Notes: generated by a model from the sequence alone, not told the origin. Numbered from the stretch's first letter, positions 1-62,896 are shown. The stretch is DNA of 64,000 bases from Fidelibacterota bacterium (GCA_029939575.1 JAOZSR010000003.1:8981-72980), one strand, 5' to 3'. Numbers and translations: made by a program.

Positions 1-1326
1 ATATCCTGCTCCATAACATACTGCCCTAACCACAACTCCCGGATTTTGTCCCCTCTGACCTGCTGTTATTAAAGGATTAATTGTTATTGTGGCTGGTGAT
101 TGACTGATAATTGCATTAGTTGAGGTTTTCGGATTTGAGCCATCAAGAGTATATTTTATTTTAAGGTTTTCAGGAGAATTAATCACAAGTTCAAAAGTTG
201 ATTCATAAAATCCCCTGGTTTTAGAAAATTCCGGTTCAACCGCAAACCCCGTAATACCAGAAGTATTATTTTCACTGTTAGGAGTAGGTTCATCAAACAT
301 AACCCAATTTTCTGCTCCATCAGGTTTACGGCCATAAGATATATCTGCCGGAATTTTACCCATAACCACTTCATCCAGAAGTTCGTTCTCATTATTGGTT
401 AAGAAAATCGTCTCGCCATTGGAGTTTATTTTGAAATTTGTATGTAAAAAGGAAGTAGATAAGTCAATTAAATTATGAGTTCCCTGAGCATTGTTTGGTA
501 CAGTTGTCATTCCAAGGGTCAAAAAAGGTATCAAAGTCATATCCGATGAATTAGTGTCAGAATTATGGATTTGAATTGCCAGGACATTTTCGCCTTGTAC
601 AAGGAAATCACCGAAATTTTCAATAGCAAATTCTTCTGGAGGTTGGCCGGATACAATCAGGGGTTCAAGATAAGTATCAGCTGATTGATCCCAGGATGGA
701 TTGGTACCGGAAATATTTTTTCTGGCGATTTCTACACCATTGATATAGGCCACAAAACCATCATCATAATCTATATGAAACATGGCACCTGTTATATTAT
801 TAATATTTTCTATCTGAAAAATTTTCCGTGCGTAAACAGATATAGTATTTTCAGGGATTTCGGTAGCATCATCGTCGTCTCCATATCCGATTCCGGTTGG
901 GCCGCTATTCCATTCTGAATCATCAAAATCGATAGATTTCCAGTCTCCTGATACTTCAGAATTATTTACCCGAAATGTCCAGATATCGCCCCATGTAATA
1001 ATTGTTTCCCAATGATTTGTGTTTTGACGATCTTTTGAGGATGCGAAAATCAATAAATAGTCATTGGGTTCTATTGTAATATTTGGAAAAGTCCATTTTG
1101 ATAAATCGCTTTCATCGTCAGAAATTCCAAATCCTTCCAGGTTTACAGGGGAATCATTATTGTTAAAAAGTTCAATCCAATCCGAAAAATCACCGTCTTC
1201 ATCCTGAATCCTATTATTATTCATAGACATGATTTCATTAATTTTGATCGTTCCTGAAAATAAAGTATGGCATAAAACTAACAGAATTAGAATTATGAGG
1301 TTGATAGGTTTTTTATTTTTTTCCAT
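1..1326 (-). CDS. Partial secreted lamin-tail-domain (LTD) protein. The N-terminus is in the window (ATG at 1326) and the C-terminus lies beyond position 1.
   Basis: The six-frame track omits this ORF because it has no in-window stop. The reverse strand reads open from 1326 to 1, and I verified the frame at several points. It opens with a signal peptide (MEKNKKPINLIILILLVLC). An LTD-like core follows (TIKINEIMSMNNNRIQDEDGDFSDWIELFNNNDSPVNLEGFGISDD...). A second LTD-like tail follows (ETIFLTNNENELLDEVVMGKIPADISYGRKPDGAENW). Confidence 0.55.
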   Translation of the reverse strand, partial: MEKNKKPINLIILILLVLCHTLFSGTIKINEIMSMNNNRIQDEDGDFSDWIELFNNNDSPVNLEGFGISDDESDLSKWTFPNITIEPNDYLLIFASSKDRQNTNHWETIITWGDIWTFRVNNSEVSGDWKSIDFDDSEWNSGPTGIGYGDDDDATEIPENTISVYARKIFQIENINNITGAMFHIDYDDGFVAYINGVEIARKNISGTNPSWDQSADTYLEPLIVSGQPPEEFAIENFGDFLVQGENVLAIQIHNSDTNSSDMTLIPFLTLGMTTVPNNAQGTHNLIDLSTSFLHTNFKINSNGETIFLTNNENELLDEVVMGKIPADISYGRKPDGAENWVMFDEPTPNSENNTSGITGFAVEPEFSKTRGFYESTFELVINSPENLKIKYTLDGSNPKTSTNAIISQSPATITINPLITAGQRGQNPGVVVRAVCYGAGY

Positions 1327-1537
1327 TTTTCCTTTTCTATTTAAAGAGTAAACATTATCGTTAAATATATGTATTGAAACACAAAGTAACAATTTTATTT
1401 TCAGGGATTATTGTCTTGTAATATTCAGAAGAAATTATAATTATTTATATCTCAATATTACACTTTTCCCAAAAAATATTTTTTCTTTTTTTAAATGAAT
1501 ATTATCTTCTATATTTATATGATATTTTATATTAAGA

Positions 1538-1710
1538 TGATTTGGGGAAACTCGTGAAAATCGAGTACAGTCGCGCTACTGTAATCGGCACCAATTCCGG
1601 AATTTTGCCACTGAACTAATAATAGTTTGGGAAGGCTCTGGAAAAGATTAAGTCGTAAGTCAGGATACCCATAAAACAATAAACCTTCGCAGAAAAGGGA
1701 GTTTTTTTGA
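1538..1710 (+). ncRNA. Cobalamin (B12) riboswitch in the 5' leader of a TonB-dependent receptor gene
   Basis: B12-box GCCACTG at 1607-1613. Conserved core GGGGAAACTCGTGAAAATCGAGTACAGTCGCGCTACTGTAATCGGCACC. Motif AGTCAGGATACC at 1658-1669. U-run at 1701-1709 ahead of the ATG at 1784. Confidence 0.7.
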
Positions 1711-1783
1711 ATATACCACTACCTAACAATCAAATTTTTACCAAATTTCTTATAAATAAATAATTCATATATATTAAATCCTT

Positions 1784-3898
1784 ATGGCTAATAAAAATAA
1801 ATATTTTATTTTCATGATTTTTGTTCTTATTTTAATATTTCCTCATTTTTCTTTTTCAAATATTCATTATTGGAGTGGGAAAATAATTCAATCTAATCTT
1901 GAACCATTATCAAATACATATATTCATAATTTAAATTCTGATATCTGGATAATAGCTGATAATAGAGGTGATTTTTTTCTTAATAAGGATTTCTCTGAAG
2001 ATGATACTATTATTTTTACTCATATTGGTTATAAACCAGTCAGAATTATTTTATCTTCAAAACAAAAATTCTTCACAGTTATTATGCAACAAGATACAAT
2101 TAACATGGAAAGCGTAACAATTACCGGGTCCGGTTCATTTCATCAATTATCTGGCGGATTCTCTAAGGAAGTTCAGAATATTTCAAAATCACAGTCCATG
2201 GGTGATCTCGAAAACTCCCGATTATTACAGGGAATACCCGGATTGTCGATAAAAGGATATGGTGGCCCCGCTGGAATCTCCACAATTAGTTTGGATGGAG
2301 GTTCGGCTGCGCATACTAAAATTTTAATTGCCGGATTTGATTTAACGAATCCACAAAATGGACAAATGGATATATCCCAAATCCCAGCCCCTTTTGTGGA
2401 AAAAATCAGCTATTATATAAATGGAATAAATCAGCATGGTTCCGGCACTGTTGATGGAGTAATCTCTCTAAATCCATGGCAAAAAAACAATTGTGTCTCT
2501 TTTTCTTTGGGAAATTATGGTCATACAGGAAGTTATGTAACCTTAAGTAAAACCTTTAAAAAAACAACTATAGATTTACTTACAGGTTTTCGGAGAGATG
2601 AAGGAAATTACAAATATTTATCTTATACCGACGATAAAATTCATTATCGTAAAAATAATGATTTTAAACAGAATTATTTTTCTGCCAGGGTTACCAGAAT
2701 TTTTTCTAACCACTTATTTTCGAAATTTTTTTATTTAGATTCTTCCCAGGAACGTGGTGTAGCAGGCCCTTTTTGGGGCATTATTGATACATTGTCATTT
2801 CGGCAAGATCGCTTATATACTTTAGGATTATCTCTGTACTGGATAAATCCAAAAAGTAAAGGATCTTTTGAGATTGTAACCCGAAATTCTGATGAAGAAT
2901 ATTCAAATCCATATTTTTTTATAAATAGTCAGCATAAGCTTAAATCTATTCAATTAATTTTCAATCATGAAATCAGAGTCACTGATTATTTTAATTTTAA
3001 ATTACAGGGAAAAAGTAAGAATGATCATTTAGAAAGCCGAGATACAGGTTCACACTCAAGAAATACTTATACAGGTTCTCTGTTACTTGATTATTCTCCT
3101 TTCCCATTTATGCAAATTTTACCGACGTTGCATTTTGAGAAGTCCCCTAATCTCTTTGATGTTTTGACTTATGAAACATGTATTACACTTGCCCCAAAAT
3201 ATTTTCTGATAGATGAAATTACTCTCCAATATGCTTCCCAATTCAGATATCCGTCTTTTAATGAACTTTTTTGGCAACCAGGTGGGAATCCAAATCTAAA
3301 GCAAGAAAATACGGATTCCTGGGTGGGTTTAATTGGTTTTAAAATACACAATTTGATTAATTTAAAAATCCAGGGGTATTATAAACAAAGTGACAATTTA
3401 ATTCTATGGATGCCACAATCAGCCTACTGGACACCAAAGAATATAAAAAAATCCAATAGAAAGGGGTATAAGACTACTCTTGCATGGGAATATCCTGACT
3501 TTAGATTAGCAGGATCTCTGTATTATGCCAGGAATATTTCTCAAAATCTTCAGCCGGGTTATAATTATAATAAACCACTTCGGTATTCTCCATTTAACAC
3601 TGCTTCATTCAGTTCAAAATGGAATCCTGATTTGCTGGAGTTCTTTTTCCAGGCCCATTATACCGGGGAAAAAATTGTTATGTACGGATATAATCCACAG
3701 GATAAAGAAAATGAAGATGATGTACTCAAACCCTATTTATCATTATCAATAAGTATTGGTTATCATTTTGAAACCAAACATCTGGAAATTGTTCCGGTTT
3801 TCACTATTGACAATTTTACAGATAAATATTATGAAACAATAAAAGGTTATCCCGAACCAGGAAGATCTTTTAGAATTACAGTAAATTTTAACTTTTAA
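1784..3898 (+). CDS. TonB-dependent outer-membrane receptor, BtuB-like, under a B12 riboswitch
   Basis: Signal peptide. Plug domain (SVTITGSGSF...LLQGIPGLSIKGYGGPAGISTISLDGGSAAHTKILIAG). Long beta-barrel ending in the aromatic terminal residue (...RITVNFNF). Sits immediately downstream of the cobalamin riboswitch. Confidence 0.7.
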   Translation: MANKNKYFIFMIFVLILIFPHFSFSNIHYWSGKIIQSNLEPLSNTYIHNLNSDIWIIADNRGDFFLNKDFSEDDTIIFTHIGYKPVRIILSSKQKFFTVIMQQDTINMESVTITGSGSFHQLSGGFSKEVQNISKSQSMGDLENSRLLQGIPGLSIKGYGGPAGISTISLDGGSAAHTKILIAGFDLTNPQNGQMDISQIPAPFVEKISYYINGINQHGSGTVDGVISLNPWQKNNCVSFSLGNYGHTGSYVTLSKTFKKTTIDLLTGFRRDEGNYKYLSYTDDKIHYRKNNDFKQNYFSARVTRIFSNHLFSKFFYLDSSQERGVAGPFWGIIDTLSFRQDRLYTLGLSLYWINPKSKGSFEIVTRNSDEEYSNPYFFINSQHKLKSIQLIFNHEIRVTDYFNFKLQGKSKNDHLESRDTGSHSRNTYTGSLLLDYSPFPFMQILPTLHFEKSPNLFDVLTYETCITLAPKYFLIDEITLQYASQFRYPSFNELFWQPGGNPNLKQENTDSWVGLIGFKIHNLINLKIQGYYKQSDNLILWMPQSAYWTPKNIKKSNRKGYKTTLAWEYPDFRLAGSLYYARNISQNLQPGYNYNKPLRYSPFNTASFSSKWNPDLLEFFFQAHYTGEKIVMYGYNPQDKENEDDVLKPYLSLSISIGYHFETKHLEIVPVFTIDNFTDKYYETIKGYPEPGRSFRITVNFNF

Positions 3899-3913
3899 TC
3901 GGAGGGAATTTCC

Positions 3914-5221
3914 ATGAAAAGATTGTTTCCAATAATTATTTTTTTAAGTTGTATTTTGCAGGGAGAAACTAAAGTTTTTGTTCTTTGTGAAGGTAATTTT
4001 AATACTTCAACTGCTGCTCTCTGGCAGTTTGATGATTCCTTTGCTGATATTAATGGCCCTGTTTTTTGGAATACATCTGATAATCCATTGGGTGATACTG
4101 GTCAATCATTGACAATTTTTGGCAATTATCTTTATATTGTAGTTAATAACTCACATACTATTGAGATTTTGGATATATCTAATAATGATCCCGTTTTTCA
4201 TAAAACAATATTGGTACCTAATGCCTCACCAAGGGATATTTGTGTTTATGAAAATAAAGCATATATTAGTTGCTGGCTACTAAGCAGCATTTTGGAATAT
4301 GATTTAAATTCAGAAACTTTTACAGATACAATTCAAACTCCAGGCAAACCAGAAGACGTTCTGTTGTATAATGGTAAATTATATAGTTCAATTATTGAAG
4401 AATCGGGTTCCTGGGACAAAGATAACAAAGTTGTGGAAATTGATTTGGAATCTGATTCCAATGAGATAACAAATACATATGAGGTTCTGCCCGGGCCCAA
4501 TCAAATGGCGATTAATAATAATGAACTTTTTGTAACCTGTACCCATTTTAATGAAAACTGGCAAGCAATGACCGGAACCTCAAAGATTGATTTATCTTCC
4601 GGTGTCGTAACAAGTGTTTCCCATGGTACAACTAAAAATTCGGGAGCGGATATTTGTTATTACAATAATTCTATTTTTAGGACATTAGATTCTATGATTG
4701 TTGAATTAGATGATGGCTTGGAGCCATTATCTGAAAGTGCTATTTCCAATTTTGGTTCACAGAATATTTATTCTATGGCAATGAATGATGACCATATTTT
4801 TGTGGGATTGACTGATGATTTTCAGGCACCGGATGATTTGATGGTCTTGGATATGGGAGGGAATATAGTTAAACAGTATTCAGTTAGTGCTCTGCCCGGC
4901 AGTTTTGGTTTCTTTACAAATGAGAGTTTAATAAAAGAAGACCTGGCAAAATTTTCACCACATGTATTTCTCCATGATAATTATCCTAATCCTTTTAATC
5001 CGAAAACCAATATTTCATTTTCTATTCAGGAAAAATCATTTATTGAAATTAAAATATTTGATATATCAGGTCGTGAATTGGAAACCCTTGCCAGTGAAGA
5101 TTTTTTACCAGGTGTACATTTAATTCAATGGAATGGAGCAAAATATGCTTCAGGTTGTTATTTTTATCAAATAAAGTCAGAAAATTTTTCTAAATGTAAA
5201 AAAATGGTATTGCTCAAATAA
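3914..5221 (+). CDS. Beta-propeller-like surface protein with a T9SS C-terminal sorting domain, co-operonic with the BtuB-like receptor. Possibly a BtuG-like B12-capture protein.
   Basis: RBS GGAGGG 7 nt upstream of the ATG. Signal peptide. N-terminal FVLCEGNFN motif typical of YncE/BtuG-type propellers. C-terminal NYPNPFNPKTNISFSI...YFYQIKSENFSKCKKMVLLK. Confidence 0.6.
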   Translation: MKRLFPIIIFLSCILQGETKVFVLCEGNFNTSTAALWQFDDSFADINGPVFWNTSDNPLGDTGQSLTIFGNYLYIVVNNSHTIEILDISNNDPVFHKTILVPNASPRDICVYENKAYISCWLLSSILEYDLNSETFTDTIQTPGKPEDVLLYNGKLYSSIIEESGSWDKDNKVVEIDLESDSNEITNTYEVLPGPNQMAINNNELFVTCTHFNENWQAMTGTSKIDLSSGVVTSVSHGTTKNSGADICYYNNSIFRTLDSMIVELDDGLEPLSESAISNFGSQNIYSMAMNDDHIFVGLTDDFQAPDDLMVLDMGGNIVKQYSVSALPGSFGFFTNESLIKEDLAKFSPHVFLHDNYPNPFNPKTNISFSIQEKSFIEIKIFDISGRELETLASEDFLPGVHLIQWNGAKYASGCYFYQIKSENFSKCKKMVLLK

Positions 5222-5349
5222 TTTTTTTATTTTTTTAAAATCCATATTTAAAAATAATCAGGAAAATCTACTAATCAGGAGGTGGATTTTTGTATTAGTA
5301 TTTATTTTTGAATTAAAGTATGTTTGCAGGGAAAATATTTTGGAGAAAA

Positions 5350-6087
5350 ATGTTCACAAAAGAAAAAATAGTACAATTTAAAGATATTGGGAAAATAGTT
5401 CTAAAAAACCACACAAAAGCTAAAAATATCAAAATTTCTGTAGCATTCGGAAAAAATGTTCTGGTAACTGTCCCGGAAAGAGTTAGTTTTAAACAAGCAA
5501 TCCGGTTTGTCAATTCAAAAAAAGAATGGATAAAAAAATCCCTGGTGAAAATTAGAGAGCACAGGGAAAAAGGGATGATATTTACTAATAACAAGCCAAT
5601 TTGTACCAGGTTTCATAAAATGAAATTAATACCAATAGATGAAAATATAATTCATTTTTCTATTAAACCGGGAATTGTTGAATTTCGCTATCCAAATAAT
5701 ATTGATATTGCTGATAATATTATCCAGGATGGAATAAAATATACATTACGTGAAACTTATCGGATTGAAGCTAAACAAATCTTACCTGCGAAATTACAAG
5801 CCCTGGCAGTGAAATTTGGTTTTTCATACAATCGCCTTTTCATTAAAGCCCAGAAATCAGTATGGGGAAGTTGTTCAAGTAATAGGAATATCAACCTAAA
5901 TCTACAACTTATGAGACTTCCTGACGAATTAATAGATTATGTACTACTCCATGAATTGACTCATTTGAAAGTACACAAACATGGTCCGGAGTTTTGGAAT
6001 TATCTTTGTTCAATGATGCCCGATGCAAGGGATAGAAATAATAAACTTAAGCAATATAACCTCCATGATCTATTTCCAAATAATTAG
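5350..6087 (+). CDS. YgjP/DUF45-family zinc metallohydrolase (M48/WLM-like, HExxH motif)
   Basis: HELTHL motif (LLHELTHLKVHKHGPEFW). N-terminal region of YgjP type (IVQFKDIGKIVLKNHTKAKNIKISV). I prefer the internal start at 5350 (GGAG 5 nt upstream) over the ORF-track start at 5320. Confidence 0.6.
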   Translation: MFTKEKIVQFKDIGKIVLKNHTKAKNIKISVAFGKNVLVTVPERVSFKQAIRFVNSKKEWIKKSLVKIREHREKGMIFTNNKPICTRFHKMKLIPIDENIIHFSIKPGIVEFRYPNNIDIADNIIQDGIKYTLRETYRIEAKQILPAKLQALAVKFGFSYNRLFIKAQKSVWGSCSSNRNINLNLQLMRLPDELIDYVLLHELTHLKVHKHGPEFWNYLCSMMPDARDRNNKLKQYNLHDLFPNN

Positions 6088-8060: not shown

Positions 8061-11000
8061 ATGAAATTATCCTTTTTAAAAGAAATATTCAGAAGCAAAT
8101 TGGGCAGATCTATTTTACTCACATTTTTTCTAATAGGTATAACGCCAATAGCAATTGTTAATACAATTAATTATCTGCATATGAGAACAATAGTTCAGAA
8201 CCAGGTTGCTGATTTACTTCAGGAATTGGCAAATAAAAGTATTATGGATATTAATTATCATTTTAATAGGTTGATATTAAACTTAAATTTGCGAGCTGAA
8301 TCGGGTGATAATGTTGAAATTTTAAAAGCTTTTACCAGGGCTTTCAAAAAAAGTAATATTAGTTTAGAGAGATTTGTTAAAAGTCCCCAATGGGCGAAAA
8401 TTTCTACAGAAAAATGTGCTGACCTGAAAGCTATTAATGAGGGAAAAGGGTATTATGATATTTTTCTGATAGATACTGAAGGTAATATCCTGTTTTCAAT
8501 TAAAAAAGAAAGTGATTTGGGTACAAATCTGTTTAATGGTAAATATTCCCAAACCAAATTTTCAAAAGCATGTAAAAAAGTGTTTAACACCGGTAAACCG
8601 GCTTATTCTGACCTGGAATTTTATGAGCCTTCAGGAAATGAGCCAGTCGGATTTGTTATTGACATTATGTATGATGATTTGGGAAACAGAATAGGTTTTA
8701 TTGCCTTTCAGATTGATATAGAACAATTAAATAACTTTGTACAATATGAAAGTGGACGTTATTCCAGTTTTGATACATACTTACTGGGGACAGATTTGAA
8801 AATGAGGTCAAATTCTCTTCTTGATTCGGTAGATAATATCTTGAAATACAAGGTATCAAATACTCTGACACAGCAATTTGAAAAGGAATTTCAAACTCAA
8901 CCTGAACAGATATTCGAAAAAACAGAAGCTCTTTTTTATAATGGAAGAAAGGGGTATAAGGTATTGGGAATTTATAGTTATCTGGAAATAACAGGAATTC
9001 CATTTATACTAATTTCCGAAATTAAAAAATCTGAGATATTTTATGATCTAAATAATATAAAGTTATTTTTTATTGCCAGTCTGGGCATGATTATAATTTT
9101 TATTTTTTTTCTTACAATTTATCAGATAAAAACAATAGTTATTCCAATTATCAAACTATCTGATTGGGCTAAGAGAGTGGCTATCGGTGATTTAACAAAG
9201 GAGAAAATTTTATCGCCTAAAAATGAAATTGGAGAAATGGCAAACAGTTTTGATATGGTAGTTGATTCTTTCTGGGCTATTTCACAGGTCTGTCAGGATA
9301 TTGCACTTGGAGATTTTAAATCAAATCTAGAAATACGTAGTGATAAAGATGATTTAAGCAGATATGTAAACCAAATGTCTGAAATGCTTCAGGATGCTAT
9401 ATTACAGGCTCACAAAATAGCCTGGGGAGATTACGACACTGATGTTAAAATACGGTCTGAGAATGACCAACTTGGTAAAGCTCTGGAGCAAATGACCATT
9501 ACTCTTAAAAATGCTTCAATAGAAACAAAATCTAAATTGGAATATCTCAATAATATTCCAACGCCATTTTTTGTGATTGATAAAGAATACAATGTTTTAT
9601 TCATAACAGAGTTCGGAGCAGATTTTATTGGGAAACCAATAGAAAAATGTGTTGAACAGAAATGTTATAATCTTTTCAATACCGGATTGTGTCATAGTGA
9701 AAAATGTCCTGCAAAGCAGGCGATGGATCAAAATTCGGTGATTATTGCTGATACTATTTCATGTCCTTTTGCAGAAAAAGTTATTTCAATCCGTTCTACT
9801 GCAGCGCCATTAAAAGATGAAAATAATAATATAATTGGGGCAATGGAATATATGATTGACACATCTGTTGAACAAAAGGTTGCGGAAATAGCAGAACGAA
9901 TTTCTCTGGGTGACCTTGATATCAATCAAAATTTACTTGGTTCGGAAAATGATCTGGACGTTGCTCTCAAAAGAATGATAGACAGGTTTAAATCTATTAC
10001 AAATGCGACAAAAAAAATTGTGGCAGGGGATTATAATTTTAAGATTAAAGAAAATAGTTACAAAGATGAACTGGCAAGATCAATTAACCAGATGGCAGAT
10101 ACTCTTAAAGAAAAAGACATTGGCATTAGAGAAACTATTTGGCTCAATGATGTTCAACTTGGATTGGCAGAAATTTTGGATGGTGTTAATAATTATGTAG
10201 ATATTTCCAGAGAGATCAGCAAATATTTGTGTAAGAAATTAGATGCTCAGGTAGGAGCTTTATATATTGTTAATGATAAAGAGATCAAACTCATGGGCTC
10301 TTATGCTTTCAATATTAGAAAACAAATTAATGATTCATTTAAGGTAGGTGAAGGATTATTGGGAGAAGTTGTTTTGGAAAAAGAAACAATTCTTTTGGAA
10401 AATGCACCGGAAGATTATTTTAAAATATCTTCCGGACTTGGTTCATCTTTGCCCAAAAACATAATTGTATCACCTTTTATATTTAATAATCAGGTATTAG
10501 GTGTTATTGAGTTGGGCTCGTTTAAAACATTTCCACCAAAAAGTATTAAACTCTTAAATATAATTTCAGAAACAGTAGCAGTTGAATTAGATCAGATAAG
10601 TAAGCAAAAAAAACTGCATGATTTATTGGAAAAAACTCAAATTCAGTCGGAAAAACTTCAATTACAGCAGGAAGAATTAAAATCCAGTAATGAAGAATTA
10701 CAATCTACCAATGAGCGTATTAAATTACAACAGGAAGAATTACGAATTTCCAATGAAGAATTAGAAGATAAAACAAGAAGTTTAGAAATTAATAAAAAAG
10801 AAGTCGAGAAAAAGAACAGGGCACTGGAGAGAGTAAGAGTTGAGTTAGAAAAAAAGGCCAAAGAACTGGAAACGTCCAGCAAATATAAATCGGAATTTTT
10901 GGCGAATATGTCACATGAATTGAGATCACCTCTAAATAGTCTTTTATTACTCGCAAAAGCACTAAGTAGAAATTCAACCGGGAATTTAACAGAAAAACAA

Positions 11001-12914
11001 AAGGAATCAGCAAGAATTATTTATAATAGTGGAAATAACCTGCTATCTTTGATTAATGAAATTCTGGATTTGTCTAAAGTCGAGTCCGGGAAAATGGAAG
11101 TATTAGTTGAAAAATTGAAATTGAAAGATATACAATACAGTATGGAATATTTTTTCAGACATCAGGCAGAAGAAAAGGGTATTGCCTTTCATATTAATAT
11201 TGATAACAGATTACCGGAAATTATTCTTACTGATAAAAAGAGGCTGGAGCAGATTATTAGGAATTTGTTATCAAATGCAATAAAATTTACTGAAAAAGGA
11301 AAAATTAGTTTTGATATCAGAAAACCTGAATACTCTACCGGTCTGTTTAATAGTAAATTAGATGTTAATAATTGTATAGAATTTTCCGTTACAGATTCAG
11401 GGGTTGGTATTCCTGAAAAGAAACAATCTATCATATTTGAAGCTTTTCAGCAAGCTGACGGATCTACATCAAGGAAATATGGTGGAACAGGACTGGGACT
11501 TTCAATTACAAAAGAATTATGCAAACTACTGGGAGGTGAAATCCATCTCAATAGTATAGAAAATAAGGGCAGTACATTTTCGGTTTTTTTACCTATAAAA
11601 TTAAAAATTGATAAAGAAGAACAAGTAAATACCGATAGCAATGGAAAACATGAAGTTATTAAGACTAAAAATAGTAAAATTAACATAAATGAAGAAGAGC
11701 AAGTGCTTGAAGATGATCGAAATAATTTATCTGATGATGATAAAATTATTCTGATAATTGAAGATGATTTGAATTTTGCTAAAATAGTATTAGAGATGTG
11801 TAATGAAAAGGGATTTAAATGTATCCATGCTGCCACAGGTGAAGGTGGATTGTTCCTGGCTGGAAAATATTCCTTTGATGCGATTATCCTTGATATCAGG
11901 CTTCCCGGCGTTCAAGGTGCGCAGGTATTAGAAATATTAAAAGATAATTTGAAAACCAGGCATATTCCGGTAATGGTGATGTCTGCGCATGATAAACCGG
12001 AAAAATTGATAAAGAAGGGTGCTTGTGGGTTTTTATCAAAACCAGTATCTGAGGAAAAATTATTTAAAGTATTTGATGAAATTAAAACAAGAATCTCAAA
12101 AAATATAAAAGATTTGCTAATAATAGAAAATGATAAAAATCTGCAAAAAGGAATATGTAATTTGCTTGATTTGCCTCATGTCAAAATTACAGTAACTGAA
12201 AAGGGAAAGAAGGGACTGGATTTAATAAAAACAAAATCTTTTGATTGTGTTATTCTGGATTTAGGTTTGCCTGATATTTCCGGGTATGATATTCTGAAAA
12301 CTGTTAAAAAAGATAAAGATTTACAAGACTTACCAGTTATTATTTATACTGGCCAGGAATTATCAAAAAAGGAGCAATTAAAACTCTATAAATATGCAGA
12401 TTCAGTAATTCAGAAAAAGCAGAATAGTGATGAAAGGCTTCTTGATGAAACAACTCTCTTTTTACATTCGGTTTATGAAGAAATGAATATAAAAAATCGT
12501 CATAAAATTGCAAGTTTGCACGATGCTGATAGTTTTATGAAAGGAAAGAAAGTTCTTATAGTCGATGATGATATGCGCAATCTTTTTGCCTTGACAGAGG
12601 AGTTGGAACTAAAAGGCTTGGAAGTAATCAAAGCCACAAATGGGCAGGAAGCCCTTGATGTTTTAAAAGAAAATCCAAATATTGATATTGTTTTGATGGA
12701 TATTATGATGCCGGTAATGGACGGTTTTGAAGCAATAAAAAAAATCAGGGAAGAACTAAAGTATTCATCGTTACCAATTTTGGCTGTAACTGCCAAGGCT
12801 ATGGAAGAAGATAGACAAAAATGTATTGATATCGGGGCAAATGATTTTCTAAGTAAACCATTAGAAATTGAATTATTGTTTTCTATGATGCGTGTTTGGA
12901 TAAAAAAGGATTAA
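8061..12914 (+). CDS. Giant hybrid sensor histidine kinase with a periplasmic sensor, multiple HAMP domains, a Cys-rich PAS-like segment, GAF, coiled coil, HisKA, HATPase and three receiver domains
   Basis: Two TM segments flank a ~300-aa extracytoplasmic domain. There are at least five HAMP-like repeats (IGDLTKEK..., ALGDFKSNLEIRSDKDDL..., AWGDYDTDVKIRSENDQL..., SLGDLDINQNLLGSENDL..., VAGDYNFKIKENSYKDEL...). GAF domain (QVGALYIVNDKEIKLMGSYAF). Coiled coil QQEELKSSNEELQSTNERIKLQQEELRISNEELEDK. HisKA H-box (FLANMSHELRSPLN). HATPase G-box (GGTGLGLSITKELCKLLGGEI). REC1 (ILIIEDD...ILDIRLPG), REC2 (LLIIENDKN...ILDLGLPD) and REC3 (VLIVDDD...LMDIMMPVMDG...SKPL). Confidence 0.85.
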   Translation: MKLSFLKEIFRSKLGRSILLTFFLIGITPIAIVNTINYLHMRTIVQNQVADLLQELANKSIMDINYHFNRLILNLNLRAESGDNVEILKAFTRAFKKSNISLERFVKSPQWAKISTEKCADLKAINEGKGYYDIFLIDTEGNILFSIKKESDLGTNLFNGKYSQTKFSKACKKVFNTGKPAYSDLEFYEPSGNEPVGFVIDIMYDDLGNRIGFIAFQIDIEQLNNFVQYESGRYSSFDTYLLGTDLKMRSNSLLDSVDNILKYKVSNTLTQQFEKEFQTQPEQIFEKTEALFYNGRKGYKVLGIYSYLEITGIPFILISEIKKSEIFYDLNNIKLFFIASLGMIIIFIFFLTIYQIKTIVIPIIKLSDWAKRVAIGDLTKEKILSPKNEIGEMANSFDMVVDSFWAISQVCQDIALGDFKSNLEIRSDKDDLSRYVNQMSEMLQDAILQAHKIAWGDYDTDVKIRSENDQLGKALEQMTITLKNASIETKSKLEYLNNIPTPFFVIDKEYNVLFITEFGADFIGKPIEKCVEQKCYNLFNTGLCHSEKCPAKQAMDQNSVIIADTISCPFAEKVISIRSTAAPLKDENNNIIGAMEYMIDTSVEQKVAEIAERISLGDLDINQNLLGSENDLDVALKRMIDRFKSITNATKKIVAGDYNFKIKENSYKDELARSINQMADTLKEKDIGIRETIWLNDVQLGLAEILDGVNNYVDISREISKYLCKKLDAQVGALYIVNDKEIKLMGSYAFNIRKQINDSFKVGEGLLGEVVLEKETILLENAPEDYFKISSGLGSSLPKNIIVSPFIFNNQVLGVIELGSFKTFPPKSIKLLNIISETVAVELDQISKQKKLHDLLEKTQIQSEKLQLQQEELKSSNEELQSTNERIKLQQEELRISNEELEDKTRSLEINKKEVEKKNRALERVRVELEKKAKELETSSKYKSEFLANMSHELRSPLNSLLLLAKALSRNSTGNLTEKQKESARIIYNSGNNLLSLINEILDLSKVESGKMEVLVEKLKLKDIQYSMEYFFRHQAEEKGIAFHINIDNRLPEIILTDKKRLEQIIRNLLSNAIKFTEKGKISFDIRKPEYSTGLFNSKLDVNNCIEFSVTDSGVGIPEKKQSIIFEAFQQADGSTSRKYGGTGLGLSITKELCKLLGGEIHLNSIENKGSTFSVFLPIKLKIDKEEQVNTDSNGKHEVIKTKNSKININEEEQVLEDDRNNLSDDDKIILIIEDDLNFAKIVLEMCNEKGFKCIHAATGEGGLFLAGKYSFDAIILDIRLPGVQGAQVLEILKDNLKTRHIPVMVMSAHDKPEKLIKKGACGFLSKPVSEEKLFKVFDEIKTRISKNIKDLLIIENDKNLQKGICNLLDLPHVKITVTEKGKKGLDLIKTKSFDCVILDLGLPDISGYDILKTVKKDKDLQDLPVIIYTGQELSKKEQLKLYKYADSVIQKKQNSDERLLDETTLFLHSVYEEMNIKNRHKIASLHDADSFMKGKKVLIVDDDMRNLFALTEELELKGLEVIKATNGQEALDVLKENPNIDIVLMDIMMPVMDGFEAIKKIREELKYSSLPILAVTAKAMEEDRQKCIDIGANDFLSKPLEIELLFSMMRVWIKKD

Positions 12915-12918
12915 TAAA

Positions 12919-13578
12919 ATGGATAAAGAACAGGAAAAAAAGCCGGAAATTCTAATAGTTGATGATAGGGAAGAAAATTTATTTTCCCTGGAAATATTGT
13001 TGGAACAGTTTGATGTTGATTTAGTACGGGCAATGTCAGGACAGGAGGCTGTGAGTAAATGTTTGCGTAAGAATTTTGCACTTATTTTACTTGACGTGCA
13101 AATGCCTGGAATGGATGGATTTACTGCGGCTGAATATATTAAGAAAGACAAGATGAATGAAAATACACCAATTTTGTTTTTATCCGCAATATATACTGAA
13201 GAAGCCTATAAAATCAAAGGTGTTAAATCAGGTGGGATTGATTTTCTCACTAAACCATTGAATGAAGATATTTTACTTGGCAAAATAAGCCTGTTTCTAA
13301 AAATATATAATCAGCAAAAAGCACTTGAAATGAAGAATGTTGAATTAAAGGAGGCATTAGAGAATATTAAAACACTTAAGGGAATTGTCCCAATATGTTC
13401 ATCGTGTAAAAAAATTAGGAACGATGACGGATACTGGGAGAGAGTAGAGGCCTATATTAGTGAACATTCAGAAGCGGTCTTTTCTCATGGGATTTGTCCT
13501 GATTGTATAGAAAAATTATATCCCGATTTAGTCAAAAAAAATCCCAGTTTAATTAAACCTCAAATCAAAAAGGATTAA
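12919..13578 (+). CDS. Response regulator: receiver domain plus a C-terminal Cys4 (CxxC...CxxC) zinc-ribbon-like domain
   Basis: REC motifs (ILIVDDREENL, LILLDVQMPGMDG, TKPL). C-terminal PICSSCKKIRNDDGYWERVEAYISEHSEAVFSHGICPDC. Starts 5 nt after the kinase stop. Confidence 0.8.
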   Translation: MDKEQEKKPEILIVDDREENLFSLEILLEQFDVDLVRAMSGQEAVSKCLRKNFALILLDVQMPGMDGFTAAEYIKKDKMNENTPILFLSAIYTEEAYKIKGVKSGGIDFLTKPLNEDILLGKISLFLKIYNQQKALEMKNVELKEALENIKTLKGIVPICSSCKKIRNDDGYWERVEAYISEHSEAVFSHGICPDCIEKLYPDLVKKNPSLIKPQIKKD

Positions 13579-13579
13579 C

Positions 13580-14425
13580 TTGGATAATTACGGAAATGAA
13601 ATTGAAGATATTGAAGTTAATTTAGTAATTGATGCCATATTTCAAAGTTATGGCTATGATTTTAAAAATTATTTCAGAGCCTCTTTTACAAGAAGATTGA
13701 GAAACTTTAAGGTTTTGAATAATTTTAATCATATTAGTGATATTATCCCTTTTATTTTGTATGATTCCGGCAATTTTAATAAATTGTTGAATGCTATTTC
13801 CGTTACTGTGACTGAAATGTTTAGAGATCCCTTTATATATAAATATATCAGGGAAAAAGTAATACCTTACTTAAATACTTATCCCACGATTAATATTTGG
13901 GTTGCCGGTTGTGCTACCGGAGAAGAGGCTTATTCCATTGCTATCCTTTTAAAAGAAGAAAACATTCTTGATAAAGTAAATATTTACGCTACTGATATTA
14001 ATACTAATTCTCTTGATATCGCTAAAGAGGGAGTGTATTCCAGTGAAGAAATGAAATTAAGTACCAGAAATTATCAACGGAGCGGAGCGAATAGGTCATT
14101 TTCAGAATATTACCATACAAATTATGGTAATTCAATACTAAACAAGGAATTAAGGGAGAAAATTATTTTTAATCAGCATAACCTGGTATCTGATGCTTCT
14201 TTTAATGAAATGCATTTTATAATCTGCAGAAATGTTTTAATCTACTTTAATAAGAAATTACAAAACAGGGTGATAGGACTATTTAATGATAGTTTGATTC
14301 ATAATGGATTTCTATGTCTTGGAACTAAAGAGGATATAAGATATTCAGATTACGCAGAGAAATTTATTGTGAAAGGTAGAGAAGAAAGAATATTTCAAAA
14401 AAAGCAACAAGATGTCGAATTATAA
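13580..14425 (+). CDS. cheR: CheR-type protein-glutamate O-methyltransferase
   Basis: SAM-binding CheR core (INIWVAGCATGEEAYSIAILLKE...IYATDINTNSLDIAKEGVY...NVLIYFNKKLQNRVIGLF). Confidence 0.8.
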   Translation: MDNYGNEIEDIEVNLVIDAIFQSYGYDFKNYFRASFTRRLRNFKVLNNFNHISDIIPFILYDSGNFNKLLNAISVTVTEMFRDPFIYKYIREKVIPYLNTYPTINIWVAGCATGEEAYSIAILLKEENILDKVNIYATDINTNSLDIAKEGVYSSEEMKLSTRNYQRSGANRSFSEYYHTNYGNSILNKELREKIIFNQHNLVSDASFNEMHFIICRNVLIYFNKKLQNRVIGLFNDSLIHNGFLCLGTKEDIRYSDYAEKFIVKGREERIFQKKQQDVEL

Positions 14426-14990
14426 GGCCATAGTAATCGGAGCATCTCTTGGTGGATTTGATGTAATTCTAAAAATTATTGCCCCTTTACCAAAGAATTT
14501 CTCAATACCAATAGTTATTGTCCAGCATTTATCACCAGATCATATTATTGGGGATAAATACAATTTATTAAATACCAGATTTAAGTTAAATGCGAAAGAA
14601 GCGGAGTTGTTTGAAATATTAAAAGCCGGAAATGTATATTTCGCCCCAGCGGGATATCATTTATTAATTGAAAAAAACAGGTCTTTTTCTTTGAATGTTG
14701 ACGAAAAAGTAATGTATAGCCGTCCGGCAATAGATGTGCTTTTTGAAACTGCTGCTGAAGCCTTTGGAAATTCATTGATTGGAATAATTCTAACCGGAGC
14801 AAATAGGGATGGTACTAATGGAATAATCAAAATAAAGGAATTTGGTGGTCTGACAATTGCCCAGGATCCCAAAACCGCTTTAAGTCCTGAAATGGTCGAA
14901 TCTGCAATTGATAGTGGAAAAATTGATCATATATTAACACCAACAGAAATATATAATTTTATTATGCAATTTGCTGATGCAAAAAATTAA
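14412..14990 (+). CDS. cheB: CheB-type protein-glutamate methylesterase, catalytic domain only
   Basis: KAIVIGASLGGFDVILKII, PIVIVQHLSPD, RPAIDVLFETAAEAFGNSLIGIILTGANRDGTNGIIKIKEFGGLTIAQDP. Overlaps the cheR stop by 14 nt. Confidence 0.8.
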   Translation: MSNYKAIVIGASLGGFDVILKIIAPLPKNFSIPIVIVQHLSPDHIIGDKYNLLNTRFKLNAKEAELFEILKAGNVYFAPAGYHLLIEKNRSFSLNVDEKVMYSRPAIDVLFETAAEAFGNSLIGIILTGANRDGTNGIIKIKEFGGLTIAQDPKTALSPEMVESAIDSGKIDHILTPTEIYNFIMQFADAKN

Positions 14991-21899: not shown

Positions 21900-24800
21900 A
21901 TGAAAATGAAGAAATGTATTTTAATCTTATGTTTACTGATTTTTTCTGGACTTGGCCATGGTCAGGACTGGAGTTTTGAAGAAGATTTTGTTATTAATCA
22001 CGAAGGATCCATGCCTCATGGTGTGGTAGTTACACCGGATCAGAAAATATGGGTTGGCTATTATGGAAGTACAGATACCATTTTTGGAGAACAGGATACC
22101 ATTCTATATCCCATTCCAATCAGACCAATTTGGGTTTTTAATCCCGATGGATCATTAGATAGAAAGATTAAATTCTTAACCTTTGAAGGTGTCGAAGATA
22201 CAATAGTTAATACCTGTAGAGGATTGAGTCTTGATAATAATGGTAATGTACTTTTTAGTAATTGGGATTGTTTATATAGAATCAATTATCAGACTGATGC
22301 TGTTATGAATAAAATGATACCGGAAGAAGGAGTTAGTATAACTGAAGCGGCCTGTGATGCAAATGGATATATTTATCTTACATATGTTGTTCCCGATGGT
22401 AGACCCATTACAATATATGATAGTAATTTTGATTATTATGGATTAGTTGATGAAAATAATTCAATAATCTCAAGATCCCTGGCTATTTCGGCTGATGGAA
22501 ATGATCTCTATCTTGGAAGGATTTATGGATATACTGATGGTGGTGAAGGTAATGGCGGAATAATCCATTATCACAGTGATAATGGTCCGGATGGCCCATA
22601 CACACAAGGTCAAACATATCATTCTGAAATTTGGGGAGAATGTCTTGATTGGGATAATAATGGTTTACTTTGGGTTGGTTCATTTTGGAATATACCAGAA
22701 GAAGATCTGGATGGATGGTATGGATTAGATGTATCAAATGATTTAAATATTGTTAGGGTATTGGGAAATAATGTAGGTATTAATCCTGATGAAGGTCCTC
22801 AACCACCTCCCGGAGGTACTTATTATTCACCTCGTGGAATGGCCTGGAATGCAGATGGAACAATAATATACACTGCAGATTTTAATGGTGGTGTGATAAA
22901 AAAATGGCAGGGTTTGAATTTAGATTTTACGACACTTCACGATATCAATTTTAATAATTCTGATGCTGGTATCGATGGTAATTGCTACCCTTCAACAATG
23001 TTAGATAACCAGGTAAAGACTCAGGGGATTGTTTTAGGAAATGATCCTTGGGGATTTTATGTTCAGGATGGTTCAGAATCATGGAATGGCATTTATGTAT
23101 ATACTACAAATCAGATAGCGAATTTTCCAGATATTGGTGATTCTGTAATAGTGATTGGTAATGTTGATGAATATGCCGGAGTTACTGAAATTATTAATCC
23201 TGTTGTTTCAAATTGGGGATCTGCCAATACTACTATAGAACCTCTTGACTTAACAACCGGTTTATTTGGCAATGGATGTGATGTAGCTGCGGAAGTTTAT
23301 GAATGTACTTTGGTAAAACTTACTGATGTTACTGTTACACAGGAAGCTAATCAATATGGTGTCTGGTATGTTGATGATGGATCGGGTCAGTGTCCTATTG
23401 ATATTAAAATGTTTCCTTTAGCGCCTTCAGTTGGTGAAACTTTTGATTTTATCATCGGAGTTGTCAGAGATCATTTTGGCGAATACAAAATCACTCCCAG
23501 AAGACGTGAAGATTTTTCACCTATGCCGGTACCGCCTGTAACATTTCAGGCTGATTTAACACAATTTATAAATGAGGGTTGGTTTGATCTGGCAAATCCG
23601 GCAGATTCTATTGTTGTTAATGGTAGTTTCAATGGATGGAATTCTCATATAAAAATGGTTCCTGACGAAGGAAATCCAAATATATATACTCATACAGAAA
23701 TGATAACTGCTAATGTTGGGGATATAATTGAGTGGAAATTCAGAATGTTTCCAATTTATAAATGGATGAATAGTGGCTGGGAAGATGGTAACAATCGGAC
23801 AACAGTATATACTGGTGGTGAAATGGTACTGGAGGCAGAAGTACCAAATTGTGGACCTATAGAAGAGACAATATCCCAGGATGTTACTGTTACATTTTCT
23901 GTTAATATGGCAGGTGCTGCCAGTTTTCAGACAGGTGAGCCTTTTGAAAATTTAAAATCAGTTTTTATGAATGGCGACTTTTGTACTGCAAATGGATGGG
24001 CAGGATGGGCACTTGAAGATACTGTAAACCTGATTCGTTTATATGATGATGGAGCAACCGGGGGAGATCAGGTTGCAGATGATAATGTCTGGACAACCAA
24101 CGTTCTTTTTCTGGCAGGTTCTGGATATGGACATATTTATAAATACGCAGCTTATGATCCTGATAATATGGATCTTGAGGGTACCAACCCTCTGGACAAT
24201 GAAGCTGGATGGGGTGATGACCATAATGTTGTTATAGATGATTCTGGGCCAACATATATACCGCCAACCGATAGATGGGCTACAATAGATATCGATGAAA
24301 TTTCAATTTCTGATGCCAGAGTGCTTAATGATGGGGAAATGGTAAAGATTACTGGTATTGTGACCTCGCCAAATTTTGGTACTCCGGATGCTGTATCCGA
24401 ATATACTATTCAAGATGCTACTGCAGGAATTATTTTGTGGGCGAATTTTTTCGATGCTAAATTAAATATAGGAGATAGTGTTTCTGTTCTCGGTCAATTA
24501 GCTACATATAGTGGAAAAAGGGAAATTGTTCCACAAAATAATGGTGATGTTATTGTTCTTTCGAATGGAAATGGACTGCCTGCTTTTCAAAATTTAACAA
24601 TATTAGAATTATTAACTGATCCGGAGGCTTATGAATCTGAATTAGTCAGGATTTTAAATGTGACAATTATTGATGGTTCCTGGCCTAATCCAGGTGAAAA
24701 TTCTAATTTATTCATTACTGATAATTCCAGTGATACTGTTTTTACAATGAGAATTGATAAAGAAACAGATGTTGATGAAGGGCCTGAGCCTGACGGAGCA

Positions 24801-28604: not shown

Positions 28605-28648
28605 TAGGATAGAAAAAAGAATATTTTTCTTGTAAAAAGGAGGAAAAG

Positions 28649-36710: not shown

Positions 36711-36794
36711 TGCCGAAGACGGGAGTCGAACCCGTACAGGCAATAGCCCACATGGCCCTCAACCATGCGTGTCTACCAATTCCACCACCTCGGC
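36711..36794 (-). tRNA. tRNA-Leu (anticodon GAG), type II, CCA not encoded
   Basis: GCCGAGGTGGTGGAATTGGTAGACACGCATGGTTGAGGGCCATGTGGGCTATTGCCTGTACGGGTTCGACTCCCGTCTTCGGCA. The 7-bp acceptor stem, 3-bp D stem, long variable arm, T-arm GGTTCGACTCC and anticodon loop TTGAGGG all fold correctly. Confidence 0.8.
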
Positions 36795-53523: not shown

Positions 53524-54621
53524 CTAAAACTTCACACCAAGACTATAGCAGGTATTGGCTCCTAAAATACCTAAATCCCGATATGCAATGTCACAGGAAA
53601 TTTTGGCATTACGTATTAGATTCAGGGAAACTCCACCACCAAGAGTCAGACCAAATTCCGAGGATTCCATAAACAGGGCTTTGTAACCACCTCTAAGAAA
53701 GAATTTACCAAAAGCCGGCATATTGAGGGCGTATTCAGCACCAAGATTAATTGATTCGCTATTGTTATTGGGATGCAGGGCATCTATAGCCAAGTTAACT
53801 TCCTGATTGTTTAAAACCAGTGGTTTGACCGAAACACCTACCCGGAAGATTAAGGGTAATTCCCAGGAATTCAGTCTGAATTGTCCGGGAACATCCCGAT
53901 AATTCCCATTAATACCCGGATCAATATCGATCGGGTTCAGCAAATCAATTCCATCATATCTGAGTTTGGAACCATAATTGGAAACGCTCATTCCGATTTT
54001 CATTCCATCTTCCTGTTTTCCGGTAATAGAGAAAAAATTGGTTTTTATCAGTACACCAAAGTCAAAAGCTACTGCTGCTCCGGATACATGCCAGATTTGT
54101 GATGAAACATATTTTGCACTTGCACCAAAGGCAAACCATTCGGCAATTGCCCGGCTAAAACTAAGAGAAGCGGCAAGTTCATTGGCATCAAACATTTCGC
54201 CTGTTCCATTTTGCTGAGTAAGCGTATTTACTTCCATTTCACCGTAATTCATGTGTATCAGGTTAAATGCAATTGTACCCAGATTTGGAATTGGTATGCC
54301 AACAGCGGCAAAAGCGATATTAGCATCTACCAGCCAGGGTTGAGACATGAACATTGCTTCATTATTTTTCATAAATGCCAATCCTGCAGGATTCCAGTAA
54401 ACCGAAGATAAATCCTGGGCTAAACTAACATAAGCATCACCCATGGCAATACCGGCCGGACCATAACCAATTTCCAGGAAATTGGCTGTAGTTGTTCCAA
54501 CTCTATAGGGTTCTTTTGCTTCAGAATTCCTGACAAAACAAGTAAAAAGAAAAATAATTATTAAGATTCTGTTTAACATTAATAAAACCTCGTTGTTTTT
54601 ATATTTTATTATATTTTTCAT
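53524..54621 (-). CDS. FadL/PorV-like outer-membrane beta-barrel protein (T9SS-associated shuttle candidate)
   Basis: Signal peptide. GYGPAGIAMGDAYVSLAQDLSSVYWNPAGLA N-terminal signature shared by the FadL/PorV/UPF0164 families. Ends in the aromatic ...YSLGVKF. Confidence 0.5.
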   Translation of the reverse strand: MKNIIKYKNNEVLLMLNRILIIIFLFTCFVRNSEAKEPYRVGTTTANFLEIGYGPAGIAMGDAYVSLAQDLSSVYWNPAGLAFMKNNEAMFMSQPWLVDANIAFAAVGIPIPNLGTIAFNLIHMNYGEMEVNTLTQQNGTGEMFDANELAASLSFSRAIAEWFAFGASAKYVSSQIWHVSGAAVAFDFGVLIKTNFFSITGKQEDGMKIGMSVSNYGSKLRYDGIDLLNPIDIDPGINGNYRDVPGQFRLNSWELPLIFRVGVSVKPLVLNNQEVNLAIDALHPNNNSESINLGAEYALNMPAFGKFFLRGGYKALFMESSEFGLTLGGGVSLNLIRNAKISCDIAYRDLGILGANTCYSLGVKF

Positions 54622-54637
54622 GTTTATCGTTATTCCT

Positions 54638-58066: not shown

Positions 58067-58100
58067 ATGATTAACCTCTTTTATAAAAAATTCAATAAAA

Positions 58101-60830: not shown

Positions 60831-60916
60831 TTTTACTTTCCCAAATCTAATTAGATTTCCTATTTATATTATTCTCTATGCGTTAAACAAATATTTTATC
60901 AAACTGAAAGTTTTAG

Positions 60917-62740: not shown

Positions 62741-62763
62741 ATATATATTCCAATGTTGTTTAA

Positions 62764-62896
62764 TAAAAAGGAGTGTACATTTAATCTGCCACAAAGTCAC
62801 CTGGACACAAATTTTCGACCTGATTTTTACCTGGTATTTGATTTGTATCTTTGTGTCTTGGTAGCAAAATTTTTCAAACCTGTACACTCCTTTTTA
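62764..62896. repeat. Perfect 16-bp inverted repeat (TAAAAAGGAGTGTACA / TGTACACTCCTTTTTA) enclosing a 101-nt segment with nested 8-bp inverted repeats. It lies in the leader of the GDSL-esterase gene.
   Basis: 62764-62779 pairs exactly with 62881-62896. Inner GACACAAA (62804-62811) pairs with TTTGTGTC (62850-62857). Confidence 0.6.

Follow-up and report, generated by a model that had tools for sequence, protein, structure and literature searches.

A cobalamin riboswitch, a divergent BtuB, and a BtuG homologue

We analyzed a 64,000-nucleotide (nt) stretch of DNA from a Fidelibacterota bacterium (GCA_029939575.1, JAOZSR010000003.1:8981-72980), referred to here as the window. The subject of this analysis is a two-gene locus near its start, in which a cobalamin (B12) riboswitch precedes btuB, encoding a TonB-dependent transporter, and btuG, encoding a homologue of the transporter lid BtuG that carries a type IX secretion system (T9SS) sorting domain at its C terminus. 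An earlier interpretation made without database searches (the sequence-only reading) had drawn attention to this locus, and its individual claims are taken up below where the evidence bears on them. The features of the locus are as follows.

1510-1690 (+), cobalamin riboswitch aptamer, from the RF00174 covariance model and the B12 box
1691-1783 (+), leader from the aptamer to the start codon, with no terminator-like site
1784-3898 (+), btuB, predicted TonB-dependent corrinoid transporter, 704 amino acids (aa), from the Plug domain and BtuB as nearest relatives in the PDB
1874-2122 (+), N-terminal CarboxypepD_reg-like extension of BtuB, residues 31-113 (PF13715, E value 1.6e-6)
2204-2419 (+), Plug domain of BtuB, best-matched stretch, residues 141-212 (PF07715, 28.6 bits versus a cutoff of 23.9)
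3407-3442 (+), BtuB extracellular loop 8 (EL8) motif W542-N553, WMPQSAYWTPKN, from alignment with the BtuB2 and BtuB3 EL8 tips
3914-5221 (+), btuG homologue with a T9SS tail, 435 aa, from sequence, fold, and contact residues
3914-3964 (+), putative signal peptide, residues 1-17, from inspection and alignment with tailed relatives, with a predicted cleavage site at ILQG/ETK
3965-4918 (+), seven-bladed BtuG-type beta-propeller, residues 18-335, from an AlphaFold2 model, Foldseek, and corrin-contact residues
4919-4963 (+), flexible linker, residues 336-350, with a predicted local distance difference test score (pLDDT) below 50 at residues 339-348
4964-5218 (+), T9SS type A C-terminal sorting domain, a beta-sandwich, residues 351-435, from PF18962, TIGR04183, and the model

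Positions 1510-1690 matched RF00174 (Cobalamin) over its full length (model positions 1-189) with 87.5 bits and an E value of 3.1e-20 in cmscan, compared with a gathering score of 31.5 bits, and the canonical B12 riboswitch proposed in the sequence-only reading therefore passed the covariance-model check. The B12 box GCCACTG (1607-1613) and AGTCAGGATACC, which begins at 1658, lie exactly where they had been placed. The start given for the feature (1538) needs adjustment, however, as the riboswitch is present but its aptamer begins 28 nt earlier, at 1510. The start codon of btuB lies 94 nt past the end of the aptamer on the same strand. Neither an intrinsic terminator nor a stable sequestering hairpin could be convincingly identified in the leader downstream of the aptamer, and the fold of 1640-1800 was not more stable than those of shuffled sequences (z = +1.06). 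The sole helix in the centroid structure, a weak one of 9 base pairs, joins 1651-1659 with 1781-1789 and spans the AUG. Such a predicted helix across the start codon, in a leader without a terminator, is suggestive, and only suggestive, of translational control.

The first open reading frame (ORF1, 1784-3898) had been described as a BtuB-like TonB-dependent receptor. This description holds, as the Plug domain scores above its cutoff and the closest PDB sequences are Bacteroides thetaiotaomicron BtuB1, BtuB2, and BtuB3, followed by Escherichia coli BtuB. When a family profile of 14 Marinimicrobia orthologues was used, the top 10 PDB matches were all BtuB (5.5e-44 to 4.6e-31), with the next TonB-dependent transporter at 1.3e-17. 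The NCBIfam BtuB equivalog cutoffs were missed (TIGR01779, 79.2 versus 599.7 bits; NF007926, 71.4 versus 836 bits), and for this reason we refer to ORF1 as a divergent BtuB. Both models are understood to be built around proteobacterial BtuB. Corrinoid transport itself is predicted from sequence. The N-terminal extension scored 28.5 bits on PF13715, just under the Pfam cutoff of 32.2, and two relatives (L019 and L042) also have this domain. In EL8, the motif WMPQSAYWTPKN (WMPQSAYW549TPKN) aligns with the loop tips of B. thetaiotaomicron BtuB2 (WLPTTKGFFSPRN) and BtuB3 (WLPTSKGFYSPVN). Residues W542, P544, W549, and N553 are invariant among the 14 Marinimicrobia BtuBs, with Trp549 as the aromatic tip. 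In Bacteroides, an aromatic residue at this position dislodges B12 from BtuG (Abellon-Ruiz 2023, PMC10404256).

The second open reading frame (ORF2, 3914-5221) begins 15 nt past the end of ORF1, as had been noted, and the FVLCEGNF sequence reported for the start of its product is found within residues 20-29 (KVFVLCEGNF). ORF2 alone matched the PDB chains of BtuG1, BtuG2, and BtuG3 at 1.6e-15 to 2.6e-8, with a sequence identity to B. thetaiotaomicron BtuG of ~20%. A family profile of 39 sequences matched the three BtuGs over the whole propeller at 1.1e-35 to 5.2e-33, compared with 7e-18 for an archaeal YVTN S-layer propeller and 6.5e-6 for YncE. The AlphaFold2 model of ORF2 (pLDDT 90.3) has 26 strands over residues 19-335; BtuG2 also has 26, arranged in seven blades of which one is two-stranded (PMC10404256). 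In a Foldseek search of the PDB, the top 16 matches were all BtuG1, BtuG2, or BtuG3 (E values of 1e-17 to 1.5e-15), with target template modeling (TM) scores of 0.78-0.84, except for 0.44 with 8blw_B, a 626-residue BtuG1 chain. The assignment of ORF2 to the seven-bladed BtuG-type propellers thus agrees with structure comparison.

Using a published list of BtuG2 corrin contacts (bioRxiv 10.1101/2024.02.16.580637 and PMC13616437), mapped by full alignment, we found 11 of the 15 positions identical or conservatively substituted in ORF2 (E26, G27, F29, Q64, N78, S105, R107, W167, F212, Y286, and F303), most of them invariant among the 39 relatives. The remaining four are changed (S195 to D168, Q219 to G194, and W272 to H237, with W149 shifted by one). 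ORF2 was previously called a possible BtuG analogue; by profile, fold, and contact residues it is instead a true homologue, whose binding site, judged from the alignment, is essentially intact and predicted to bind corrinoids. Alternatively, ORF2 could be a generic YVTN/YncE-type propeller unrelated to B12, lying beside a transporter for some other substrate. The missed BtuB equivalog cutoffs would fit this alternative, as would the match of ORF2 to DUF5074 (PF16819), which is partial and just below its cutoff (26.0 versus 27.2 bits, profile positions 3-64, covering only the N-terminal 60 residues); precomputed PF16819 matches are present in several relatives. This explanation is already contradicted by the identity of the BtuG and BtuB proteins, the conserved contact residues, and the universal riboswitch linkage described below, and we regard it as scarcely credible. 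The clustering with non-B12 YVTN proteins that the sequence-only reading had named as a danger to its proposal was not seen, as the family profile ranks BtuG ahead of both YVTN-type propellers.

The N and C termini of the BtuG homologue

ORF2 begins with MKRLFPIIIFLSCILQGETKVFVLCEGNF. By inspection and alignment, its N terminus is of the Sec type, with MKR followed by a hydrophobic stretch and LQG/E; the sequence runs from MKRLFPII through IFLSC, which ends in Cys13, to ILQG/ETKVF. In tailed relatives, the mature N terminus lies 2-5 residues ahead of the motif [FY][VI]LCEGN, and in the window protein it would lie ~3 residues before the first strand. Signal peptides of these relatives stop at the same place with signal peptidase I sites, such as VLG/NARVF and FAQ/SN. 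At the other end of the protein, residues 357-432/435 exceeded the cutoffs of both sorting-domain models (PF18962, 39.1 bits versus 27; TIGR04183, 41.2 bits versus 23), the AlphaFold2 model places seven strands over residues 351-433, and the C terminus ends in the usual K-x-x-x-L-K type motif. Comparison with relatives revealed neither the conserved lipobox nor the acidic linker of BtuG lipoproteins in ORF2. The sequence-only reading had described a T9SS tail in place of a lipobox, which stands with one nuance, namely, that the signal peptide does hold a cysteine.

This cysteine, Cys13, most likely belongs to the hydrophobic core of a standard signal peptide. Nearly all of the ~35 tailed relatives lack it (one of them, L009, has a similar nonconserved cysteine in its hydrophobic core). 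It is also important to consider that Cys13 might be a genuine lipobox cysteine (FLSC), making the protein a lipoprotein with a tail in addition. The sequence around it (IFLSC) does have Ser at -1 and Leu at -2, and a clear hybrid with a lipobox, an acidic linker, and a tail exists among the relatives, recovered from independent sources. We nevertheless disfavor a lipobox here because Cys13 is not conserved in other tailed relatives, is too near both the start of the protein and the first strand (9 residues from the latter, versus 12-20 in true lipoprotein forms), and has no acidic linker after it, the ILQGE that follows being unlike the acidic export signal of the lipoprotein forms. The PROSITE lipobox rule places the cysteine at positions 15-35 with six uncharged residues ahead of the box, and Cys13 departs from it. 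A close relative (L004) has the same signal peptidase I-type ending, VLG/NARVF, without a cysteine. Double anchoring of the window protein is, in our judgment, very unlikely.

The C-terminal domain could also be interpreted as an immunoglobulin (Ig)-like spacer or binding module of the FlgD_ig type rather than a secretion signal, in which case the protein would be periplasmic or would reach the surface by some other route. Many relatives score as well on PF13860 (FlgD_ig) as on Por_Secre_tail, or better, and none of the core T9SS genes for PorK/L/M/N, SprA, or PorU was found within the 64-kb window. The window protein itself, however, is over both curated sorting-domain cutoffs and has no FlgD_ig match; the domain lies at the extreme C terminus with its K-x-x-x-L-K type ending; and, the hybrid aside, it is confined to proteins that lack the lipoprotein module. 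In addition, the window contains a PorV/PorQ-family gene and encodes seven or more proteins whose C-terminal ends are of the Por_Secre_tail type. We give the spacer interpretation little credence. The PorV/PorQ-family gene, a sign that this organism carries components of the T9SS, is located as follows; its product did not reach the PorV or PorQ equivalog models.

53524-54621 (-), PorV/PorQ-family outer-membrane protein (NF033709, 206 bits versus a cutoff of 90)

Two forms of BtuG in related loci

A protein identical to ORF2 is present on metagenome contigs, and the closest homologues with a named source are from Candidatus Marinimicrobia. In the databases, relatives are labeled only "T9SS type A sorting domain-containing protein" or "DUF5074 domain-containing protein." We scanned one genome per species with an 11-sequence alignment, which returned 80 loci, ~76 of them from Marinimicrobia/Neomarinimicrobiota/Fidelibacterota. 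In every Marinimicrobia locus for which upstream DNA was available, the gene directly 5' of btuG is a btuB orthologue of the same orientation, in many cases overlapping it. The pair is present in ~75 related genomes, and RF00174 was found directly upstream of btuB in all 22 loci scanned for it (11 loci of each BtuG form, as defined below). The synteny with a corrinoid locus on which the sequence-only reading had made its proposal depend is therefore present across these loci. Genes 3' of btuG are not conserved and are mostly convergent, and for this reason we take the unit to be bicistronic (riboswitch-btuB-btuG). We considered the YgjP-like gene at 5320-6087 as a further member of the unit and rejected it, as it adjoins btuG in no related locus. 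No btuF, btuCD, or other B12 genes were found among the annotated ORFs of the window.

The related proteins come in two forms, which almost exclude each other. The long form (427-453 aa) combines a T9SS tail with a plain signal peptide and has scarcely any linker at its N terminus. The short form (332-351 aa) has a lipobox cysteine followed by a linker of 12-20 residues rich in Asp, Glu, and Asn (e.g., CEDxK, CENLF, and CSDNP), which resembles the Bacteroidota lipoprotein export signal, and it has no tail. Automated classification of the Marinimicrobia loci gave 33 with a tail only, 27 with a lipobox only, 1 with both, and 1 with neither (Fisher P = 2.7e-15). The corresponding numbers for a Balneolales-related set were 26, 70, 4, and 4 (P = 2.7e-16), where the 4 proteins flagged as having both are ambiguous, their cysteine lying inside the signal peptide with a plausible A-x-A signal peptidase I site after it. 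The strict motif patterns of the classifier left ~20 sequences unclassified, and by eye the same rule holds for these. Across the relatives, the N-terminal linker of the lipoproteins has a median length of 15-16 residues and the stretch from the end of the propeller to NYPNPF in the tailed proteins a median of 24, so that the two linkers are of a similar order in length. The tailed arrangement is not peculiar to the window, as it predominates in a large clade of Marinimicrobia and appears again in Balneolales.

In a neighbor-joining tree of the propeller core rooted with Bacteroidota, the lipoprotein form is basal and the tailed form makes up one large derived clade, within which at least three groups return to the lipoprotein form (the tree carries no support values). 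Variation is also seen over a much shorter distance. A single cluster at ≥90% identity holds three variants, namely, a 437-aa protein that has a tail as well as a signal peptide, a 453-aa hybrid, and a 332-aa tail-less protein, indicating that the end modules are exchanged among close relatives. The hybrid (P0024/P0121; L016, 5542-6903), recovered from independent sources, combines a lipobox, an acidic linker, and a T9SS tail. The tail-less protein (P0122; L037, 3778-4776) has a signal peptide and is possibly truncated. These sequence comparisons suggest that the anchor swap has happened repeatedly in evolution.

The tailed architecture also occurs at a greater distance. Starting from a more distant homologue with a tail (P0060, 26% identity), we found ~30 clusters with DUF5074 and Por_Secre_tail from Balneolales, Cyclonatronaceae, and one "Rhodothermaceae" metagenome-assembled genome (MAG), including the cultured Natronogracilivirga saccharolytica (P0147). 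Balneolales-type tailed loci include L084 and L086-L088, among them that of N. saccharolytica (GCA_017921895.1). Each of the three scanned (L084, L087, and L088) contains, in this order, RF00174, a TonB-dependent transporter, a tailed propeller, and a B12-dependent NrdJ-type ribonucleotide reductase. As the Balneolales tailed proteins are nearer to the lipoprotein forms of their own lineage (43-45% identity) than to the Marinimicrobia proteins (~26% to the window protein), their tail was probably gained independently of the Marinimicrobia tail. Finally, a single BtuG homologue from a bacterium of the Fibrobacterota-Chlorobiota-Bacteroidota (FCB) group (P0054; L089, 5001-6176) has a C-terminal type I dockerin and neither a lipobox nor a T9SS tail; a cobalamin riboswitch (43.5 bits) and a gene for a 713-aa TonB-dependent transporter lie upstream.

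Tethering of the lid

We consider it likely that the two genes of the locus form a corrinoid uptake unit of the outer membrane, controlled by a cobalamin riboswitch, with a BtuG lid that is exported by the T9SS and most probably held at the surface. When corrinoid is scarce, the leader would permit expression of BtuB and BtuG, and when it is plentiful, the riboswitch would shut the operon off. BtuG would cross the inner membrane via Sec with its ordinary signal peptide and the outer membrane via the T9SS, with removal of the sorting domain. The mature protein would most likely remain at the surface through its C-terminal linker of ~15-20 residues on anionic lipopolysaccharide (LPS), together with a large interface with BtuB. 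BtuG may then capture corrinoid in its central pocket while sitting on BtuB as a lid, and upon closure of the lid, Trp549 at the EL8 tip would push the corrinoid from BtuG into the barrel for TonB-driven import. T9SS export, surface retention, and B12 binding are predicted from sequence and by analogy with characterized systems, and attachment to anionic LPS is modeled on other type A cargo.

Several observations weigh against this reading. None of the core T9SS genes sought was found in the window. The identity of the proteins is touched by the missed BtuB equivalog cutoffs, the partial DUF5074 match, and the four changed corrin contacts, and regulation is touched by the lack of a convincing terminator or sequestering hairpin in the leader. 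Lastly, in Bacteroides, loops EL2 and EL11 of BtuB clamp the N-terminal linker of BtuG, which is regarded as the probable hinge of the lid (PMC10404256). Because this linker is absent here, the geometry of the hinge must differ, and a C-terminal tether implies a different hinge.

The main rival explanation, and a limit on the A-LPS anchoring that the sequence-only reading had put forward, is that the tail serves for secretion only and that BtuG is released as a soluble high-affinity "corrinophore," in the medium or on vesicles, which later docks on BtuB. Many type A sorting-domain proteins outside Porphyromonas occur in culture supernatants, and the N-terminal hinge linker of the lipoprotein BtuGs is missing. 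Docking without a covalent tether is conceivable given the extreme affinity of BtuG and its large interface with BtuB (PMC10404256, PMC6143338). A free binder, on the other hand, would be easily lost to its producer in dilute sea water. The repeated swapping between lipid anchor and tail, in forms whose linkers are about equally long, is better explained by two kinds of tether than by a change in lifestyle; one relative has an attachment module, the dockerin, in place of the tail; and a hybrid with both lipobox and tail exists. We consider release unlikely, although less so than the other alternatives, and favor a surface-held lid.

The closest solved relatives of the window family, in both sequence and structure, are the BtuB1G1, BtuB2G2, and BtuB3G3 complexes of B. 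thetaiotaomicron (PDB 8BLW, 8BMX, and 8P97/8P98; PMC6143338, PMC10404256). A riboswitch lies upstream in both systems. Both also have a BtuB whose EL8 motif carries an aromatic residue at its tip, a neighboring gene that encodes a seven-bladed propeller (TM of about 0.8), and most corrin contacts of BtuG (E-G-x-F, Q, N, S-P-R, W, Y, and Y). In contrast to the known BtuBG systems of Bacteroidota, the host here belongs to Marinimicrobia/Fidelibacterota, and btuB precedes btuG, whereas btuG comes before btuB in the three Bacteroidota loci compared. The operon is a minimal one of two genes, without the btuFCD, btuH, btuJ, and btuK genes of Bacteroides loci. BtuG as described is a surface lipoprotein, in which a lipoprotein export signal and a linker come after the lipobox cysteine (PMC6143338). 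In place of the lipobox, export-signal linker, and N-terminal hinge, the window protein has a linker and a T9SS type A sorting domain at its C terminus. It therefore fails one defining feature of the described family, and this is exactly what makes it a variant.

Closer at hand, the Marinimicrobia lipoprotein BtuGs (e.g., P0043 and P0058, and loci L034 and L040-L078) have the same operon and are 33-44% identical over the propeller. The Balneolales proteins with DUF5074 and Por_Secre_tail (e.g., P0147) share the architecture, the riboswitch-transporter-propeller order, and the near mutual exclusivity of tail and lipobox; they differ in having the motif NEGAF in place of CEGNF and in that their operon runs on into the NrdJ-type ribonucleotide reductase. 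With T9SS type A cargo in general (TIGR04183/PF18962, e.g., the gingipains of Porphyromonas gingivalis), the window protein shares a Sec signal peptide, a linker, and a beta-sandwich sorting domain of ~80 residues. Known cargo consists mostly of enzymes, adhesins, and motility proteins, whereas the window cargo would be a transporter lid. To our knowledge, no described T9SS cargo is the substrate-capturing lid of a TonB-dependent transporter, and none was found in the literature searched. BtuG has been described as exclusive to Bacteroidetes (PMC6143338) and as a lipoprotein (PMC6143338, PMC10404256, PMC13616437), and lipoprotein-capped TonB-dependent transporters have been described as apparently exclusive to Bacteroidetes (PMC10404256). 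The literature searched contained no paper linking BtuG to the T9SS as an architecture or placing BtuG in Marinimicrobia, and nothing relevant on Marinimicrobia with T9SS or BtuB.

Elsewhere in the window, several other genes encode apparent T9SS cargo. The divergent gene 5' of the riboswitch (1-1330, minus strand, extending past the start of the window) encodes a protein of 1,308 aa with lamin-tail, CotH, and Por_Secre_tail domains. Two adjoining genes (21900-31087, plus strand) encode T9SS-tailed proteins of 2,234 aa (Laminin_G_3) and 812 aa (Rha78A-like Ig). A tightly packed five-gene locus at 53524-63969 (minus strand), possibly for nutrient uptake, has accessory proteins that all appear to be T9SS cargo. 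It encodes a 350-aa T9SS-tailed protein (62917-63969), a 656-aa esterase-like T9SS-tailed protein (60917-62887), a 909-aa SusC-like TonB-dependent transporter (58101-60830), and a 1,142-aa protein that matches no Pfam model and whose end resembles a sorting domain (54638-58066), with the PorV/PorQ-family gene at its end.

Other genes of the window bear on different subjects. At 8061-14990 (plus strand), a 1,617-aa hybrid sensor kinase (dCache, PAS, GAF, HisKA, and receiver domains) precedes a receiver protein, CheR, and CheB, which form a chemotaxis-like methylation module beside the sensor kinase. An 84-nt tRNA with a long variable arm lies at 36711-36794 (minus strand; RF00005, 52.1 bits). 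The gene at 50793-52973 (minus strand) encodes an unusual 726-aa fusion of a SurA-like N-terminal region, a peptidyl-prolyl isomerase domain, a radical SAM/SPASM domain, and a C-terminal SEC-C motif.

Taken together, the comparisons suggest that the tail was acquired two or more times and that several groups returned to a lipoprotein; a natural double-anchored hybrid and a dockerin variant also exist. On this basis we tentatively propose, at somewhat less than even confidence, that in FCB bacteria beyond gut Bacteroides the lid of a TonB-dependent transporter can be T9SS cargo tethered to LPS at its C terminus, and that the tethers are functionally interchangeable modules that have been swapped repeatedly. 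The anchor swap would amount to a natural experiment on how a lid can be tethered (by an N-terminal lipid, a C-terminal T9SS tail, both, or a dockerin), and it proposes a new class of T9SS cargo, the nutrient-transporter partner. If this is general, capped transporters of the BtuBG type would not be a speciality of Bacteroidota or of lipoproteins, and the T9SS would contribute directly to complexes for nutrient import; the SusC-like locus described above, with its T9SS-tailed accessory proteins and PorV-like gene, hints at such generality. The idea is testable, as carriers of the tailed form are in culture (N. saccharolytica, and Balneolales/Balneolaceae strains without a "MAG" label). For Marinimicrobia, an abundant and largely uncultured ocean lineage, the BtuB-BtuG pair would be the standard B12 uptake unit, which bears on how competitors for scarce B12 in the sea are to be understood.

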